A DNA stretch of 64,000 nt from an uncultured Ruminococcus sp. (GTDB lineage: Bacteria; Bacillota; Clostridia; Oscillospirales; CAG-272), in contig CAZUYA010000001.1 of the NCBI GenBank assembly GCA_964624685.1, positions 7,744 to 71,743 on the forward strand, written 5' to 3'. Position numbers and translations under genes: made by a program. The notes under the pieces were generated by a model. The model was not told the origin of the DNA. It was given only the letters and a program-made list of their open reading frames with translations, and ran no database searches. Numbering within the stretch: the stretch's first letter is position 1; every line of letters begins with the position of its first letter. Shown one piece after another: positions 26,080 through 32,483 of this stretch.

Positions 26080-28248
26080 ATGTCAATCAATATTAACGAG
26101 ACTTTGGCGAATGAATTTCAATTAAAAGTTGAACAAGTGGAAAAAACTGTTGCTTTGATCGATGAGGGGAATACGATTCCGTTCATTGCACGCTACCGTA
26201 AAGAGGTAACGGGAAGTTTGGATGATACCGTTTTGCGTGATTTGAACGATCGCCTGAATTTTTTGCGTAACATCGAAAAGAGGCGGCAAGAGGTTTTCGA
26301 TCTGATTTCGGCGCAAGAGAAAATGACTCCGGAGATCGAGGAGGCAATTGCCGCGGCAAAGACCATTACGGAGATTGACGATATTTATCGTCCGTTCCGC
26401 CCGCATCGAAAAACACGTGCATCCGTGGCGCGCGAAAAGGGACTGGAGCCTTTGGCGGAGCTGATCTATGCGCAAGAACCGGTCTATGAGCCTTCCATTG
26501 AAGAACAAGCGGCATCGTACATCGACGAGGAGAAGGGAGTTGCCAATGTTGAAGAGGCATTGCAGGGGGCGCGTGACATCATTGCCGAGAACGTTTCCGA
26601 CAACGCCGAATTCCGTAAGGAATTGCGCCGATTGACTTTTGAGTTCGGTACACTTTCATCTAAGCAAGCCAAAGAGGAAGATTCGGTTTACGCACAATAT
26701 TACGACTATGCCGAGGCACTCAAAAAGGTGTTGCCGCACCGTGTACTTGCCTTGAATCGAGGCGAAAAAGAAGAGTTTTTGAAAGTCAATATTTCGGTGG
26801 CGACCGATATTGTATTCCGGTATCTTTTTTCACAAACCATTCGCGGGAACCACAGTCCTGCCGAATCTTATGTATCGGAGGCGGTTGTTGACAGTTATGA
26901 GCGATTGATCGCTCCTTCCATCGAACGTGAGATCCGCAGTGATATTTTTGATCAAGCGTGCGAAGGTGCAATCAAAGTTTTTGCCGATAATTTGAGTCAT
27001 TTATTGATGCAATCCCCCTTGAAAGGGAAGACCGTATTGGGATTTGATCCCGGCTATGCGCATGGTTGTAAGCTTGCGGTGGTCGATAAGACCGGTAAAG
27101 TAGTGGATACGGCGGTGATCTATCCGGTCAAACCGCGGGAAGAGATCGAAAAAAGCAAGGCGATTGTAAAACGATTGATTACCAAGCATCATGTGGATGT
27201 GATTGCGATCGGAAACGGAACCGCTTCTAAAGAGAGTGAAATCTTCATTGCGACTCTCCTCAAAGAGATTCCGGAAGATGTTAAGTATATCGTAGTCAGT
27301 GAGGCGGGAGCATCCATTTATTCCGCGTCCAAATTGGCGGCGGAAGAATTTCCGGAGTTTGATGTGATGCAACGGAGTGCGGTTTCCATTGCAAGACGTT
27401 TGCAGGATCCGCTGGCTGAGTTGATTAAAATCGATCCGAAGGGAATCGGTGTCGGGCAATATCAGCACGATATGAAGCAGGCGCGTTTGGATGAAGCTTT
27501 GGGAGGCGTTGTGGAGGATTGCGTCAATGCCGTCGGTGTGGATTTGAATACCGCATCTTACTCGTTGTTATCTTATATATCCGGAATCAATATCACCTCT
27601 GCCAGAAATATTGTGAAATATCGTGAGGAGAACGGAGAGTTTTCCAACCGCGCCCAATTGCTGAAAGTGCCGCGCATCGGTGCCAAAGCATATGAGCAGG
27701 CAGCCGGCTTTTTACGTGTTCCGGGCGGAAAAGAAATTTTTGATAATACCGGTGTGCATCCGGAATCTTATGAGGCGGCAGCCGCTTTGTTGGAATTGTT
27801 CGGTTATACAAAGACCGATGTGGCGAACGGTGCTTTGACGGCATTGGGCGAACAAGTGCAAAAAGCGGGTGCGGTCAAAGTCGCAGAGCAATTGGGCATC
27901 GGGATTCCGACCTTAAAGGATATTGTATCCGAATTGGAAAACCCCAGACGTGATATTCGCGACACATTGCCTCCGCCTGTTTTGCGCGACGATATTTTAT
28001 CTTTGGAAGATTTGAAACCGGATATGGAATTGACGGGGACCGTGCGCAATGTGATCGATTTCGGTGCATTTGTCGATATTGGTGTCCACCAGGACGGATT
28101 GGTACACATTTCTCAACTGTCCGATCGGTTTGTAAAGCATCCTTCCGATGTGGTCAAAGTGGGGGATATCGTCAAAGTGCGTGTATTAAGCGTGGATGTC
28201 TCCAAAAAACGGATTGCATTGACGATGCGTCAGTTCTCTAAAGCGTAA
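26080..28248 (+). CDS. tex: Tex family transcription accessory protein (YqgF/HhH/S1 domains)
   Basis: N-terminus IDEGNTIPFIARYRKE, with a C-terminal S1 domain (GTVRNVIDFGAFVDIG...GDIVKVRVLSVD). About 722 aa from ATG 26080. Confidence 0.93.
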   Translation: MSININETLANEFQLKVEQVEKTVALIDEGNTIPFIARYRKEVTGSLDDTVLRDLNDRLNFLRNIEKRRQEVFDLISAQEKMTPEIEEAIAAAKTITEIDDIYRPFRPHRKTRASVAREKGLEPLAELIYAQEPVYEPSIEEQAASYIDEEKGVANVEEALQGARDIIAENVSDNAEFRKELRRLTFEFGTLSSKQAKEEDSVYAQYYDYAEALKKVLPHRVLALNRGEKEEFLKVNISVATDIVFRYLFSQTIRGNHSPAESYVSEAVVDSYERLIAPSIEREIRSDIFDQACEGAIKVFADNLSHLLMQSPLKGKTVLGFDPGYAHGCKLAVVDKTGKVVDTAVIYPVKPREEIEKSKAIVKRLITKHHVDVIAIGNGTASKESEIFIATLLKEIPEDVKYIVVSEAGASIYSASKLAAEEFPEFDVMQRSAVSIARRLQDPLAELIKIDPKGIGVGQYQHDMKQARLDEALGGVVEDCVNAVGVDLNTASYSLLSYISGINITSARNIVKYREENGEFSNRAQLLKVPRIGAKAYEQAAGFLRVPGGKEIFDNTGVHPESYEAAAALLELFGYTKTDVANGALTALGEQVQKAGAVKVAEQLGIGIPTLKDIVSELENPRRDIRDTLPPPVLRDDILSLEDLKPDMELTGTVRNVIDFGAFVDIGVHQDGLVHISQLSDRFVKHPSDVVKVGDIVKVRVLSVDVSKKRIALTMRQFSKA

Positions 28249-28394
28249 ATTTGAGTACTTATTTTAATATATTAAAATCAAAAGTTTTGCTGTTTTTCGT
28301 TTTGTTCACAAATTGGCGGAGTGATTTGTGTAAAATACACAAATATCAAAGCAAAATTTTGGGCAAATAACCTCTTCCATTTTTGAAGAAAATA

Positions 28395-28403
28395 TGGTAC
28401 AAT
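28395..28403 (+). promoter_or_regulatory. Extended -10 promoter element upstream of the ABC ATPase gene
   Basis: TGgTACAAT at 28395-28403, about 55 nt upstream of the start codon. No good -35 element. Confidence 0.4.
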
Positions 28404-28457
28404 ATGTTATACTGAAAAAATAATGCTCCGCGGCGGAGCAACAGGAGGAATGAGAGA

Positions 28458-29573
28458 ATGGCTGGCTTATCACTCAGACATATTTATAAAAAATATCCGG
28501 GCGGCGTAACCGCTGTTTCCGATTTTAATTTGGAGATCAAGGATAAAGAATTTTTGGTTTTGGTCGGACCTTCCGGATGCGGTAAATCTACCACACTTCG
28601 TATGATTGCCGGCTTGGAGGAAATTTCCGAGGGCGAGTTGTTTATCGGTGATCGTTTGGTTAATGATGTGGCACCGAAAGATCGTAAGATTGCAATGGTG
28701 TTCCAGAACTATGCTCTGTATCCCCACATGTCCGTATTTGAAAATATGGCATTCGGTTTGAAATTGAGTAAAGTTCCGAAGGAAGTCATTAAAAAGAAGG
28801 TAGAGGAAGCTGCGCGTATTTTGGATATTACGCACTTGTTGGATCGGAAGCCGAAGGCATTGTCCGGAGGTCAGAAACAGCGTGTGGCTTTGGGACGTGC
28901 AATCGTTCGTGATCCGCAGGTCTTCTTGCTTGACGAGCCGCTCTCCAACTTGGATGCAAAATTGCGTGCAACCATGAGAACCGAGTTGACCAAGCTTCAT
29001 AATCGTGTGGAGACAACCTTTATTTACGTTACGCACGACCAGGTTGAGGCTATGACGATGGCAACCAGAATCGTTGTTATGAAGGACGGTTTGATTCAAC
29101 AAGTGGCAACTCCGCAGGATTTGTACGATCATCCCGTTAATATTTTTGTCGCCGGATTTATCGGAACGCCTCAAATGAACTTTATGAATGGCGCATTGGT
29201 TAAAAAGGGTGAGGATGTTTACTTCGTCTTTGAAGGAAATGAATTGAAGGTCCCGGCTGAAAAGGCAAATTCCGAGGAATTAAAGCCTTATATCGGACAG
29301 GAAGTTGTTGCGGGACTTCGTCCGGAATGTATCTATGATGATGCAGCCAATGTTGAAAGATGTTCGGACGCAGCCCTGAATGCCGATGTGGATGTAACGG
29401 AGTTGATGGGTGCCGAGATTTATCTGTACCTGAAAGTCGGAGAAGAGGGCAAACTGATTGCTCGTGTTTCCTCCAAATCGACAACTCGTGCCGGCGAAAA
29501 TATCAAGATTGGGTTTGATATGGAAAGAATGCACTTCTTTGATAAGGATACCGAAGTTTGCATTATTCATTGA
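28458..29573 (+). CDS. Sugar ABC transporter ATP-binding protein (MsmK/UgpC/MalK type), with no cognate permease nearby
   Basis: Walker A GPSGCGKST, signature LSGGQKQR and Walker B FLLDEPLS. The C-terminal regulatory/TOBE-like domain is present. Confidence 0.92.
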   Translation: MAGLSLRHIYKKYPGGVTAVSDFNLEIKDKEFLVLVGPSGCGKSTTLRMIAGLEEISEGELFIGDRLVNDVAPKDRKIAMVFQNYALYPHMSVFENMAFGLKLSKVPKEVIKKKVEEAARILDITHLLDRKPKALSGGQKQRVALGRAIVRDPQVFLLDEPLSNLDAKLRATMRTELTKLHNRVETTFIYVTHDQVEAMTMATRIVVMKDGLIQQVATPQDLYDHPVNIFVAGFIGTPQMNFMNGALVKKGEDVYFVFEGNELKVPAEKANSEELKPYIGQEVVAGLRPECIYDDAANVERCSDAALNADVDVTELMGAEIYLYLKVGEEGKLIARVSSKSTTRAGENIKIGFDMERMHFFDKDTEVCIIH

Positions 29574-29611
29574 TGTGAATCTTTTTAATATCTATTATTC
29601 AATATATAAAA

Positions 29612-29645
29612 CCGCCTCATCGGTTGAAACCGATGAGGCGGTTAT
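29612..29645 (+). terminator. Terminator after the ABC ATPase gene
   Basis: A 13-bp stem pairs ccgcctcatcggt with accgatgaggcgg, loop tgaa. The T-tract is weak (ttattgtat). Confidence 0.65.
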
Positions 29646-29661
29646 TGTATCTGTTTGCATA

Positions 29662-29707
29662 TTTCAAAAAGGGAAGGGGCGAGCAAATGGAAACATTGGC
29701 TCGCCCC
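29662..29707 (-). terminator. Rho-independent terminator of the barnase-barstar operon
   Basis: A 9-bp GC-rich stem pairs ggggcgagc (29676-29684) with gctcgcccc (29699-29707). On the minus strand it is followed by ttcccttttt. Confidence 0.7.
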
Positions 29708-29710
29708 AAA

Positions 29711-29765
29711 CTTTTGGCGGAGTATCACAGAACGGTGTTGAACACTTTTCCGATATTTATCCAAA
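29711..29765. repeat. Direct repeat copy 1 (about 55 nt) flanking the barnase-barstar cassette
   Basis: cttttggcggagtatcacagaacggtgttgaacacttttccgatatttatccaaa aligns with 30522-30575 at about 46 of 55 positions, including a 16-nt identical core gaacggtgttgaacac. Confidence 0.85.
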
Positions 29766-29777
29766 CTTATTTCAAAC

Positions 29778-30107
29778 TCAATCAATCTCGTAGCGGGCTT
29801 TACCATAGACAATTTCAACCTTGATCGTATTGTAATACGACTCGTTATCATAATGCTTCAATCTCTTTAATATTTCAAGCATTTTATTCGACACATGAGA
29901 AAATTTTTGTTGTAATTCTTCCAAACCGATCAGCTCAATATATAAGACTTCTTCATCTACCATCTCTGTAAGGCAATCCCAAAAGGCAGACCAATTTTCT
30001 CCGTAATAATCGGGAAAATCAAGTTCTTTTCTAATGATTTGATGAACATCTCCGTATTGTTGAACATTTGAAAAATCGAGTGTATATTTTTCTTTATATG
30101 CATACAT
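29778..30107 (-). CDS. Barstar family ribonuclease inhibitor
   Basis: DFPDYYGENWSAFWDCLTE aligns with B. amyloliquefaciens barstar ALPEYYGENLDALWDCLTG, and the Asp39 equivalent is retained. ATG 30107 lies 5 nt after the barnase stop. Confidence 0.88.
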   Translation of the reverse strand: MYAYKEKYTLDFSNVQQYGDVHQIIRKELDFPDYYGENWSAFWDCLTEMVDEEVLYIELIGLEELQQKFSHVSNKMLEILKRLKHYDNESYYNTIKVEIVYGKARYEID

Positions 30108-30112
30108 TGACC

Positions 30113-30409
30113 TTAATTTCTCCTCTCTGATATCTCGTAAAAGGTTTCGTAGTGATCTTTGGTTACAAAAATCAATCCATCGTTTGAGTAAAGTATTCGA
30201 TCGCATTTGCTACGAAAACCGGAAACATAGCTAATATCCGCCTCATACCATTTCCTTCCGGGGGTACCGGGAAGTTTCCCATCATCATTTTGGTAAATAT
30301 CTCCTCCAATCATATTTTCAGGTGCTATTTCCGCAAGATTTCCTTTTTTGGTTCTCCATCCTAAAGCTTTTGCTTGACTTTTTGTAATATAGTAATACGT
30401 TTGTTTCAA
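30113..30409 (-). CDS. Barnase-like guanyl-specific ribonuclease (N1/T1/microbial RNase family), with no signal peptide
   Basis: 98 aa. YITKSQAKALGW...KGNLAEIAP...IGGDIY...GKLPG...WYEADISYVSGFRSKCDRILYSNDGLIFVTKDHYETF aligns along its whole length with barnase residues about 23-110. TTG start with an AAGGTGG RBS 6 nt upstream. Confidence 0.88.
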   Translation of the reverse strand: MKQTYYYITKSQAKALGWRTKKGNLAEIAPENMIGGDIYQNDDGKLPGTPGRKWYEADISYVSGFRSKCDRILYSNDGLIFVTKDHYETFYEISERRN

Positions 30410-30477
30410 ACAGTGCCACCTTATGCCAATGCGTGCCGCTTTTTTGAAAAAACAGAAAAATTTGTAAATTTACCGAA

Positions 30478-30517
30478 AGGCAAAAAAGGTTGAGTCATGT
30501 GAAACACAAACTCAACC
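30478..30517 (-). terminator. Terminator-like hairpin adjacent to repeat copy 2
   Basis: An 8-bp stem pairs ggttgagt (30488-30495) with actcaacc (30510-30517). On the minus strand it is followed by a T6 run. Confidence 0.55.
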
Positions 30518-30521
30518 CAAC

Positions 30522-30575
30522 CTTTTGGAGGAGGTTCACGAACGGTGTTGAACACCTTTCCGACAAATACCCAAA
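30522..30575. repeat. Direct repeat copy 2
   Basis: cttttggaggaggttcacgaacggtgttgaacacctttccgacaaatacccaaa; see copy 1. Confidence 0.85.
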
Positions 30576-30590
30576 ATCAACCCAAATTTT

Positions 30591-30625
30591 AGTGAAGAGT
30601 GAAAAGTGAATAGTGAAAAAGTAAA
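30591..30625. repeat. Tandem heptamer array (AGTGAAN x4 plus one degenerate unit)
   Basis: The units are agtgaag agtgaaa agtgaat agtgaaa aagtaaa. The array partly overlaps the T-run of the tRNA-Ser terminator. Confidence 0.8.
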
Positions 30626-30656
30626 GGGATTAAGTTGCATTCGACTTAATCCCTTT
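30612..30656 (-). terminator. Terminator of tRNA-Ser
   Basis: A 13-bp stem pairs aaagggattaagt (30623-30635) with acttaatcccttt (30644-30656) and abuts the CCA end. A T-run follows on the minus strand. Confidence 0.75.
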
Positions 30657-30747
30657 TGGCGGAGAAGGTGGGATTTGAACCCACGCAACGCGTTAACGTC
30701 CTACGAGATTTCGAGTCACGCCTCTTCGACCACTTGAGTACTTCTCC
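30657..30747 (-). tRNA. tRNA-Ser (anticodon CGA)
   Basis: A 91-nt class II tRNA. The acceptor stem GGAGAAG/CTTCTCC is perfect. The discriminator is G, CCA is encoded, the anticodon loop is CTCGAAA, there is a long variable arm, and the T-loop is TTCAAAT. There is one U:U mismatch at positions 29:41. Confidence 0.85.
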
Positions 30748-30766
30748 GTATATTTTGAACGTTGCT

Positions 30767-30795
30767 ATTATACCATATTTTATTTGAAAATGCAA
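30767..30795 (-). promoter_or_regulatory. Sigma-A promoter of tRNA-Ser
   Basis: On the minus strand: TTGCAT (30795-30790), a 17-nt spacer, then TGgTATAAT (-10 at 30772-30767). This is about 20 nt upstream of the mature 5' end. Confidence 0.65.
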
Positions 30796-30906
30796 GCTTT
30801 TTTTGAAAATTCATCAATTTTATTTTTGTGTGTGAAAATTCGGTGTTTTTTCTGTAGAATAAAATCGATTTATTCATGAAACGTTCATACATTGCGTTGG
30901 ATTTTG

Positions 30907-30915
30907 TGTTATAAT
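30907..30915 (+). promoter_or_regulatory. Extended -10 element upstream of the rhaB-like gene
   Basis: TGtTATAAT at 30907-30915. No well-spaced -35 element. Confidence 0.45.
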
Positions 30916-30998
30916 GGAAGAGAACAAAGCAATGGCGATGTTGTGGGATCACGTGTTGCCATTCTATCCAGAAAGGACGCTTTCGCCGAACGAAAGCG

Positions 30999-32483
30999 AT
31001 GGTCGTGATTATGACAGAGAAAAAAATGCTTGCGATCGATTTGGGTGCTTCAAGCGGTCGCGGAATTGTCGGCTCTTATGATGGCGAGAAGCTTTCTCTC
31101 AAGGAGAATCATCGTTTTTCCAATGATCCCGTGATTGTAAACGGTAGAATGTATTGGGATATTTTACGTATTTTTCATGAGATCAAACAATCCATTACCA
31201 AGACTGTACTGGAGAAAGATGAGATTGATTCGATCGGTATCGACACGTGGGGAGTAGATTATGCATTGTTGGATCAAAACGGCAGAATGCTCTCAAACCC
31301 CGTTCATTATCGGGATACCCGAACAGATGGGATTGTGTCGTATGTCGATCGCTTTTTTACGCAAGACGAGCTTTATAAGGTAGCCGGAATTCAGTGTATG
31401 AATTTCAATACCATTTTCCAACTTGCCGCCGATCTTCGGGATGACGGAGAGATGGTCGAACGCGCAGAACGGATGCTCAACATTCCCGATTTGCTGAATT
31501 ATTTTCTGACCGGAAATATGGCAAATGAATATACCATTCTCTCAACCGGTGCATTGTTGGATGCCAACAAACGGGATTATGCGTTTGAAATGATCGATCG
31601 GATTGGTATTCCTCGTCGGTTGTTCGGTCAAATCGTTCAACCCGGAAATTGCGTCGGATCTCTTCTGCCGCAAATTTTGGAGGAGACCGGAAAGACGGAT
31701 GCAAAAGTGCTGAATGTTGCCTCACATGATACGGCAAGTGCCGTGATCGCTGTTCCGACGCAAGAAGATGATTTCCTCTTCATCAGTAGCGGTACATGGT
31801 CTTTGATGGGGACCGAACTGAAAGCACCGATGCTGACCGAACAAACCGCGGCATATAACTTTACCAATGAAGGCGGTGCCGACGGAACGATTCGGTTCTT
31901 GAAGAATATCATGGGCTTGTGGTTGATTCAGGAGTCCAGACGGCAGTGGAGAAGAGAAGGAAAAGAATACAGTTTTGCCGAATTGGAAAATTTGGCGAGA
32001 GCGTGCGAGCCGTTGCAGTCTTTTATTAACCCAGATGATGCGTCTTTCGCAACCCCCGGAAACCTTCCGGAACGGATTCGAAATTATTGCAAACGTACCG
32101 GACAGCATGTTCCCGAAAGTGTGGGAGAAGTCGTTCGTTGCATTTATGAAAGTTTGGCTTTGAAATATCGCCGTACCGCAGAGGATATTCATGCCTTGAC
32201 CGGCTTAAATGCGCGTGTCATTTACGTGGTCGGCGGAGGTACCAAGGACGGATTCCTTTCGCAAATGACTGCCGATGCAACCGGGATGCCTGTGTCTGCG
32301 GGACCGGAAGAAGCAACTGCCATCGGAAACCTGCTCATGCAACTGATGGCAAGCGGAGAAGCAAAAGGATTGAAGGAAGCACGCCGCATCGTGGCAAATT
32401 CCTTTGCTTGCAAGTACTATGAGCCGACGACTGAGCGATCGGCATGGGATGCGGCTTATAAAAGATTTTGTGAATTGAACTGA
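30999..32483 (+). CDS. rhaB: Rhamnulokinase-like FGGY carbohydrate kinase
   Basis: The N-terminal AIDLGASSGRGIVG and HRFSNDPV...YWDI are RhaB-like, and the FGGY C-terminal VVGGGTKDGFLSQMTADATG is present. The start may be 30999 or 31011. Confidence 0.82.
   Translation: MVVIMTEKKMLAIDLGASSGRGIVGSYDGEKLSLKENHRFSNDPVIVNGRMYWDILRIFHEIKQSITKTVLEKDEIDSIGIDTWGVDYALLDQNGRMLSNPVHYRDTRTDGIVSYVDRFFTQDELYKVAGIQCMNFNTIFQLAADLRDDGEMVERAERMLNIPDLLNYFLTGNMANEYTILSTGALLDANKRDYAFEMIDRIGIPRRLFGQIVQPGNCVGSLLPQILEETGKTDAKVLNVASHDTASAVIAVPTQEDDFLFISSGTWSLMGTELKAPMLTEQTAAYNFTNEGGADGTIRFLKNIMGLWLIQESRRQWRREGKEYSFAELENLARACEPLQSFINPDDASFATPGNLPERIRNYCKRTGQHVPESVGEVVRCIYESLALKYRRTAEDIHALTGLNARVIYVVGGGTKDGFLSQMTADATGMPVSAGPEEATAIGNLLMQLMASGEAKGLKEARRIVANSFACKYYEPTTERSAWDAAYKRFCELN

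Follow-up and report, generated by a model that had tools for sequence, protein, structure and literature searches.

What is a ribonuclease (RNase) of the barnase family, without a leader and without the first helix of its fold, doing beside an inhibitor gene at the end of a transfer RNA (tRNA) gene? The question is raised by a 64,000-nucleotide stretch (the window) of contig CAZUYA010000001.1 from an uncultured Ruminococcus sp., in which a barnase-like gene is followed by a barstar-like gene on the 3′ side of tRNA-Ser(CGA). As a whole, the pair is probably, though far from certainly, what remains, standing alone, of a polymorphic toxin locus carried by a phage: a barnase tip of the kind that follows a MuF motif, accompanied by its cognate barstar, located in an integration hot spot with a copy of a direct repeat on either side. 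As toxin-immunity leftovers go it is an ordinary one, apart from a single unusual feature of structure, and its two most notable points are an RNase that lacks a helix yet is conserved, and the bracketing repeat.

The RNase matches Pfam PF00545 in a profile search (E 6.4e-12, 46.3 bits, cut-off 24), and by phmmer it matches barnase in the PDB with E 1e-33. Residues 6-93 of the window protein align with barnase residues 23-109 at 65% identity, and the sole gap is a one-residue insertion in the window protein. The equivalents of barnase K27, E73, R83, R87 and H102 are all five kept in the alignments, in agreement with a previous sequence-only reading of this DNA that had recognized a barnase homologue with its catalytic residues preserved; the residues that contact barstar are also intact. 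PF00545 is the sole domain found by Pfam, and NCBIfam gives no match for the protein.

That reading had also described the RNase as leaderless and short at its N-terminus, and both descriptions hold. No hydrophobic stretch or leader is seen in the N-terminus MKQTYYYITKSQAK (MKQTYYYITK). The alignment begins at barnase residue 23, about five residues precede the aligned part, and helix 1 of barnase (residues 6-18), which packs on the sheet in the complete fold, has no counterpart. An AlphaFold2 model built from 92 aligned homologues reaches a predicted local distance difference test score of 91.3, and its closest PDB folds are those of barnase, at a root-mean-square deviation of ∼1.0 Å over 89 residues. 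The model predicts that the gene encodes the rest of the barnase fold and is silent on stability in the absence of helix 1. The reading frame upstream is closed by a TAA at 30470-30472, 20 codons ahead of the start, and the TTG start has an AAGGTGG of its own, as had been noted before. The earlier exclusion of a larger toxin with this protein as its tip is thereby correct for the present reading frame; for its descent it fails, given the MuF-motif fusions described below.

The second gene encodes a member of the barstar family, as was also previously claimed (PF01337, E 3.5e-17, 62.6 bits, cut-off 23.4; PDB barstar, E 2e-11), so both Pfam searches that had been proposed as a check come out above cut-off. 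It also matches a phage barstar family in PHROGs, phrog_17593, with E 8e-17. Asp39, central to the barnase-binding helix, is kept, as are Tyr29, Asn33, Trp38 and Thr42, while D35 and E76 of the barstar of Bacillus amyloliquefaciens are replaced by Ser and Arg. PF01337 is the only domain found; neither a DNA-binding domain nor a degradation-tag region was detected in the protein.

The origin of the pair is best seen from its relatives. Database searches returned 157 relatives of the RNase, and architecture was sorted for the best 120. At least 51 of these 120 carry the C-terminal Cys/His motif of MuF, of the phage MuF (SPP1 gp7-like) head-protein type, immediately ahead of the barnase domain, the motif being followed by an AGxAT linker. 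Signal or lipoprotein leaders occur in 24, and the remainder are short. Over the shared domain, the window RNase is 85% identical to P0001, which is as short as itself, and 78% identical to P0002, which retains part of helix 1. In the nearest longer relatives, P0004-P0007 (70-74% identity; 73-74% for P0004-P0006), the barnase domain comes right after the MuF motif and a barstar gene follows at once, whereas the best secreted forms and barnase itself are just 65-66% identical. A neighbour-joining tree groups the window RNase with P0001, P0002 and the fusions P0004-P0006, and the clade that holds the window RNase has 74 members, none of them a secreted or signal-peptide form. A private one-residue insertion (GFRSxCDR) and an EISERRN tail are common to the window RNase and P0004.

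Genomic contexts point the same way. At the P0004 locus (contig L029), a MuF-motif-barnase gene that runs off the contig start is followed after 4 nt by a barstar gene whose product is 63% identical to the window barstar and begins with the same 13 residues, MYAYKEKYTLDFS. Two viral contigs from IMG/VR hold further examples: L031 has a 200-residue MuF-motif-barnase with barstar beside a tape-measure gene, and L030 has one of 181 residues downstream of structural genes. The N-terminal parts of MuF-motif relatives match head-morphogenesis families in PHROGs. Decay states are also found: in L027 an in-frame stop lies just ahead of LPDYYITK, with a broken MuF part and an intact barstar, and in L028 a frameshift separates the MuF part from the RNase, again with an intact barstar. 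MuF is among the delivery modes of Tox-Barnase, for which Imm-Barstar is the immunity protein, and 'simple barnase-barstar gene pairs' have also been mentioned (Zhang et al., 2012; PMC3482391). The MuF toxin family was described with predicted ribonuclease tips (Jamet et al., 2017; PMC5576092). The nearest longer relatives are thus MuF-motif tips each followed by a barstar, which argues that the window pair is an orphan toxin-tip/immunity cassette. Sequence comparison indicates that both genes descend from MuF-motif-barnase/barstar pairs and that the delivery part and helix 1 have been lost. An orphan cassette left over from a polymorphic-toxin locus, one of the two readings offered earlier, is accordingly supported as to origin by the MuF-motif relatives and the decay states. 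The window RNase itself has no N-terminal MuF domain (Phage_Mu_F, PF04233) or motif fused to it and has no prophage around it; it derives from a MuF polymorphic toxin without being one.

Several observations on these relatives stand by themselves. Many are complete at ∼165-200 residues, comprising only the MuF C-terminal Cys/His motif and the barnase domain; those of L030 (5722-6267) and L031 (5662-6584) are likewise short, unlike the full-length MuF architecture usually described. In L031, the toxin gene and its barstar are set among tail genes and are read in the opposite direction, adjoining the tape-measure gene. Contig L005 (6533-9410) carries a free-standing barnase of 107 residues, P0010, with helix 1 present, a start codon of its own and a barstar partner. 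This orphan tip has an S24 peptidase gene on one side and a CI-like repressor/S24 gene on the other, in a setting that resembles a prophage remnant. A tblastn search with the RNase found no match among 50,697 GenBank phage records, and one with the barnase domain found just 4 loci in IMG/VR, against dozens of MuF-motif-barnase clusters in the protein database. MuF-motif-barnase toxins seem to be confined to uncultured gut or rumen-type prophages.

The loss of delivery part and helix did not end selection on the pair. A sister copy of the truncated cassette occurs in metagenome contigs L001-L004. At its 5′ junction L001 agrees with the window, both in the hairpin and in the sequence that leads up to the start; the truncation is therefore older than the split between them. 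In the one pairwise comparison of window and L001, covering ∼90-110 codons per gene, nonsynonymous (dN) and synonymous (dS) divergence are 0.075 and 0.47 for the RNase (dN/dS 0.16, Fisher p 5e-7) and 0.088 and 0.42 for barstar (dN/dS 0.21, Fisher p 4e-6). When the changes are polarised with L029 as outgroup, the window branch has just 4 replacements per gene, all of them conservative. These values indicate purifying selection on both genes since the loss of the delivery part and helix 1. On these estimates the pair is not a mere decayed fragment, because dN/dS has stayed at 0.16 and 0.21 since truncation and the replacements on the window branch are few and conservative. It had been proposed that longer relatives with a delivery domain would make this copy a decayed fragment; such relatives do exist, but the conclusion drawn from them does not follow, given these ratios.

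The interface between the two proteins has changed in step. In 7 of 8 pairs, the residue at RNase position 59 (barnase numbering) changes together with those at barstar positions 35 and 76. In the B. amyloliquefaciens pair, R59 of the RNase goes with D35 and E76 of barstar; L028, L029 and L031 have R or K at position 59 with D at 76; and the window, L001 and L027 have D at 59 with S35 and R76. The salt bridge is thus charge-swapped on both sides, from R to D in the RNase and from E to R in barstar. In the double-mutant cycles of Schreiber and Fersht, barnase R59 is reported to contact barstar D35 and E76. The covariation is the pattern expected if a cognate interface has been maintained and its specificity switched.

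The site that the cassette occupies is itself variable. Relatives of the window genome were located via the rhamnulokinase gene. In L008, whose rhamnulokinase is 86% identical, a tyrosine integrase gene (PF00589, E 1.5e-26) directly follows tRNA-Ser(cga), and L009 and L010 have other small cargo there; the cassette and the repeat are absent from all three. Integrase or other cargo at this flank in relatives thus marks the 3′ side of tRNA-Ser(CGA) as an integration hot spot, occupied here by the cassette. The comparison of this locus among relatives, which had been suggested as a check, is informative in L008-L010, where the cassette is missing and the flank varies, and uninformative in L020-L026, where the contigs break in the tRNA. 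In L001, the cassette directly follows a tRNA 3′ end and the far flank differs from that of the window, being a pyruvate:ferredoxin oxidoreductase gene (by open reading frame reading) and not the ABC ATPase gene. Housekeeping genes have a higher dS (∼0.9 against L020, the nearest available relative of the window; saturated for L008 and L009) than the cassette (0.45-0.47). The difference would fit horizontal movement of the cassette. No integrase gene lies in the islet in the window.

Two further features of this site were observed. L008 has two partial copies of the tRNA 5′ half upstream of tRNA-Ser(cga) (692-1110), which together with the integrase look like the trace of repeated integration. 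Logan contigs that hold the sister cassette (L001-L004) all begin at the same base inside a tRNA 3′ end, and those of near-identical strains (L020-L026), which carry the near-identical kinase gene, all end inside the 5′ half of tRNA-Ser. Assemblies that break at tRNA-Ser are as expected if the 3′ flank varies among strains in the samples.

The cassette is bracketed by a direct repeat of ∼100 nt, whose copies A and B are 79% identical over 47 nt. This repeat and the tRNA-flank hot spot are new relative to the sequence-only reading. Both copies have the same layout: a conserved 5′ part, a stretch resembling a tRNA 3′ end (CCKCCA), and a terminator-like hairpin. The conserved 5′ part of copy A contains the near-palindrome CGGAAAGGTGTTCAACACCGTTCG, and a near-palindrome CGGAAARGTGTTCAACACCGTTC is exact in copies A and B and occurs nowhere else in the window. 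In copy A, the stretch CTCCTCCAAAAGG (30533-30521) resembles the tRNA 3′ end plus its flank; in copy B, the 12-mer CTCCGCCAAAAG (29722-29711) is identical to the tRNA 3′ end plus flank at 30664-30653, a score equalled in 2 of 500 shuffles. The hairpins, at 30517-30488 in copy A and 29707-29676 in copy B, differ from each other and each has a T run. Copy A holds the position taken in L001 by the real tRNA 3′ end, and its hairpin is homologous to the one that follows that end in L001, where the tRNA 3′ end ATCCCTCTCTCTCCGCCA is identical to the end of tRNA-Ser in L008.

A scan of GTDB with the repeat core found one real extra copy, in a Lachnospiraceae metagenome-assembled genome (L007, 786-897). 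No barnase gene adjoins it, a good promoter-like site (TTTACT-17-TATACT) precedes it, and the open reading frame in L007 has no match in NCBIfam, Pfam or PHROGs; this copy could be a small RNA. Among the three copies only the hairpin varies, and the hairpin sequences differ yet still pair. The Rfam tRNA model does not match the repeat, the conserved part of which is unlike tRNA, and an Rfam search of 28000-32000 at E up to 1 returned no repeat family, just weak sub-threshold small RNA matches. Three identities are conceivable for the repeat: what tandem integrations have left of an att site, a site of recombination, or a small RNA together with its terminator. Eight matches to the core in JGI metagenomes, inside unrelated GC-rich coding DNA, and one in IMG/VR were rejected as chance. 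The idea that the repeat is a decayed 3′ half of the local tRNA-Ser was likewise set aside: its support is a core of 12-13 nt and a loose likeness to the T arm, and it is weakened by the three copies being far more alike mutually than to the tRNA.

The surroundings agree with the earlier description of an AT-rich islet beside tRNA-Ser. Both small genes lie in a 1.1-kb gap between the tRNA and a convergent ABC ATPase gene that ends at 29573, and the G+C fraction over 29700-30500 is 0.32-0.40, compared with 0.45-0.52 in the genes on either side. All that the earlier reading stated about the sequence itself was reproduced. The neighbours encode Tex, the ABC ATPase, rhamnulokinase, phosphoribosyl pyrophosphate (PRPP) synthetase and HrcA/DnaK. 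No head or tail genes of a prophage morphogenesis module adjoin the cassette, and the 64 kb hold no MuF gene (by tblastn with MuF parts), integrase or second copy of the cassette. Nearly all long open reading frames of the window run on the plus strand; these are housekeeping genes, among them those for Tex, PRPP synthetase and HrcA-DnaK-DnaJ. The tRNA-Ser gene and the cassette are among the few minus-strand features, and many long antisense frames are mechanical artefacts. The tandem TTCACTN units could be protein-binding sites of a former integrative element. The promoter-like site of the tRNA gene, the sole strong one upstream of the cassette on the minus strand, rests on direct reading and is absent from the consensus-scan list.

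Table. Features of the cassette and its flanks, with positions in the window.
Feature	Position	Strand	Remarks
Promoter-like site of the tRNA gene	30767-30795	minus	TTGCAT, 17 nt, TATAAT preceded by TGG; direct reading
tRNA-Ser (anticodon CGA)	30657-30747	minus	ARAGORN; Rfam tRNA 54 bits; cassette on its 3′ side
13-bp hairpin, terminator-like	30623-30656	minus	directly 3′ of the tRNA; no clear T run
Four tandem 7-nt units, TTCACTN	30591-30618	minus	between the tRNA hairpin and repeat copy A
Direct-repeat copy A	30482-30586	minus	upstream of the RNase gene
Shine-Dalgarno-like AAGGTGG	30416-30422	minus	6 nt ahead of the RNase TTG; read from the sequence
Barnase-family RNase gene	30113-30409	minus	98 aa; TTG start; no leader, delivery domain or helix 1
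Barstar-family inhibitor/immunity gene	29778-30107	minus	109 aa; ATG 5 nt past the RNase TAA
Direct-repeat copy B	29664-29776	minus	starts directly past the barstar stop
Perfect 16-bp hairpin, terminator-like both ways	29610-29643	both	between the cassette and the ABC ATPase gene

If the cassette is a stranded toxin tip with its immunity gene, its persistence may be pictured as follows. The RNase and barstar would be translated from one transcript, probably produced by weak read-through from the tRNA promoter past two hairpins. Expression would probably be low, as the transcript has to pass both hairpins, of which one has a T run. We infer the co-transcription of the two genes, which the earlier reading had taken as given. 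Barstar would bind the RNase 1:1 in the cytoplasm and block its active site, as in barnase-barstar, and might also neutralise barnase toxins of the Asp59 class arriving from related phages or neighbours; the viral contig L030, which carries such a toxin, comes from the same sample as L010, a relative of the window genome. The resident RNase would make loss of barstar costly, and the pair could thus persist as a small selfish unit of immunity plus addiction.

A number of observations weigh against this account. In the work of Kippen, Sancho and Fersht in 1994, the barnase fragment 23-110 on its own was reportedly largely unfolded, and the helix-1-less RNase may therefore be weak or inactive. 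A consensus scan found no promoter-like site directly upstream of the RNase on the minus strand, and a terminator-like hairpin stands between the tRNA and the RNase, so that expression of the cassette is putative. The estimates of selection come from that single short comparison, and the other branch in it is less well behaved: in L001, residues have been replaced more often and more drastically, with radical changes at otherwise conserved sites (RNase R69S and Y103S, barstar W38R), and a Shine-Dalgarno sequence is lacking. Such pairs can evidently drift, and the window copy is the well-kept one of the two. The covariation at the interface is broken by L005, which combines E59 with D76, and we infer rather than observe immunity against incoming toxins.

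These points bear most directly on the possibility that the RNase is a dead toxin stub and that only barstar is functional and selected, protecting against incoming barnase-type toxins. The inactive RNase would then persist since its translation is needed for barstar expression, or simply as it has not yet decayed. An RNase without helix 1 and delivery part, for which no promoter of its own was found, fits such a history, and L027 and L028, in which an intact barstar sits beside a broken toxin gene, are in line with it, as is the L001 copy, without R69 and Y103 and with a poor start context. The RNase, however, is at least as constrained as barstar (0.16 versus 0.21), and translational coupling alone would forbid only stops and frameshifts. 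In the window copy, moreover, the catalytic and barstar-contact residues are all intact, the replacements on its branch are conservative only, and the Shine-Dalgarno sequence is good. We regard the stub explanation as unlikely, although it is the strongest of the competitors.

Less probable still is a toxin-antitoxin module resembling type II, or an abortive-infection system, in which an RNase held by barstar is freed upon phage infection or stress and then stops growth or kills. This was the other reading offered earlier, and nothing was found in its favour beyond the gene arrangement. It would be in keeping with an RNase that has no leader and stays in the cell, with the close linkage of an inhibitor gene, with the purifying selection on both, and with a location in a mobile-element hot spot. 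Barnase and barstar bind each other extremely tightly, with no evident means by which the RNase would be released; the barstar has no DNA-binding or degradation-tag region that could provide autoregulation or lability. PADLOC-DB 2.0 yielded no defence family at E up to 0.1 except a chance-level match at 0.043, and the relatives are phage-delivered toxins, not defence genes. The toxin gene also comes first, which is the order of toxin-immunity pairs (Zhang et al., 2012; PMC3482391).

A more speculative picture, to which we would give little credence, makes the 0.8-kb unit itself the mobile entity: a mini-cassette without an integrase, made up of hairpin, truncated RNase, barstar and a conserved end of ∼60 nt, that is captured at tRNA 3′ ends via the ∼100-nt repeat. 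The repeat would then be a palindrome-bearing recombination site with a variable terminator hairpin, and the minimised RNase would still be an active cytoplasmic barnase that forms, with barstar, an addiction or defence payload.

Very improbable is a silent reserve cassette, recombined onto a full-length MuF-motif toxin gene elsewhere in order to swap its tip. Descent from MuF-motif toxin tips would suit this role, and polymorphic toxin systems are known to diversify through recombination with stand-alone cassettes (PMC3482391), but the window holds no MuF gene or second barnase, and the truncation removed the conserved linker and helix 1, that is, the homology for recombination. The frame furthermore has its own start and Shine-Dalgarno sequence, and the same truncated junction has persisted over a dS of ∼0.47. 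Finally, a canonical secreted barnase with an intracellular barstar, as in Bacillus amyloliquefaciens, is refuted by the sequence, barring a non-classical export route, despite 65% identity to barnase and the full set of catalytic residues: the protein has neither signal peptide nor pro-region, a stop closes the upstream frame 20 codons ahead of the start, and the secreted or lipoprotein forms P0014, P0025 and P0041 are more distant than the MuF-motif fusions.

Read as a remnant of a MuF-type toxin locus, the cassette shows, in a natural and clean form, what happens to a toxin tip delivered by phage when it is left behind in a host chromosome. The cassette would have lost its delivery part and a core helix, yet stub and immunity gene appear to be under selection with a co-evolving interface. 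An active stub would give the barnase 23-110 fragment, used in studies of protein folding, a counterpart in nature, and would show that orphan toxin tips can become addiction-type modules. Cassettes of this kind should be annotated as orphan MuF-type toxin/immunity pairs rather than as secreted RNases or defence systems.

Comparison with known systems places the cassette among several that it resembles in part. Like barnase-barstar of B. amyloliquefaciens (and binase), it has the RNase fold, the catalytic residues, an inhibitor of the family with Asp39 and an inhibitor gene that would protect its producer. In contrast to that system, it lacks the signal peptide, pro-region and helix 1, its genes are adjacent and probably translationally coupled, the R59-E76 pair is reversed to D-R, and D35 of barstar is Ser. 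With type II toxin-antitoxin systems based on BECR-fold RNases such as RelE, it shares a small intracellular RNase, a linked protein inhibitor, a mobile islet and the possibility of acting as an addiction unit. In those systems the antitoxin usually comes first, whereas here the toxin does, the inhibitor has no DNA-binding domain, no autoregulated promoter is recognisable and there is no sign of a labile antitoxin.

Integrative elements that target tRNA genes also occupy the tRNA 3′ side between bracketing direct repeats; the far repeat here has a 12-nt match to the tRNA end, and relatives have an integrase at the same spot. The window locus differs from them in having no integrase, a repeat of ∼100 nt whose conserved part is unlike tRNA, and an insert of only ∼0.8 kb.

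As with orphan CdiA-CT/CdiI modules and Rhs tips, an undelivered toxin tip is followed by its cognate immunity gene in a variable islet. Orphans of that kind are usually found behind a full-length toxin gene, without translation signals and with a stretch of homology for recombination retained, whereas in the window there is no full-length gene in 64 kb, the RNase has its own Shine-Dalgarno sequence and start, and purifying selection is indicated. The MuF Tox-Barnase/Imm-Barstar systems (PMC3482391; PMC5576092) differ by the MuF motif, linker and helix 1 that the window gene lacks; their members occur in phage or prophage contexts, while the window gene is not in a prophage and has no head or tail genes adjoining. 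They nevertheless supply the closest sequence relatives of both genes, and with them the cassette shares the order of toxin then immunity gene, the short spacing, the private insertion and the C-terminal tail.

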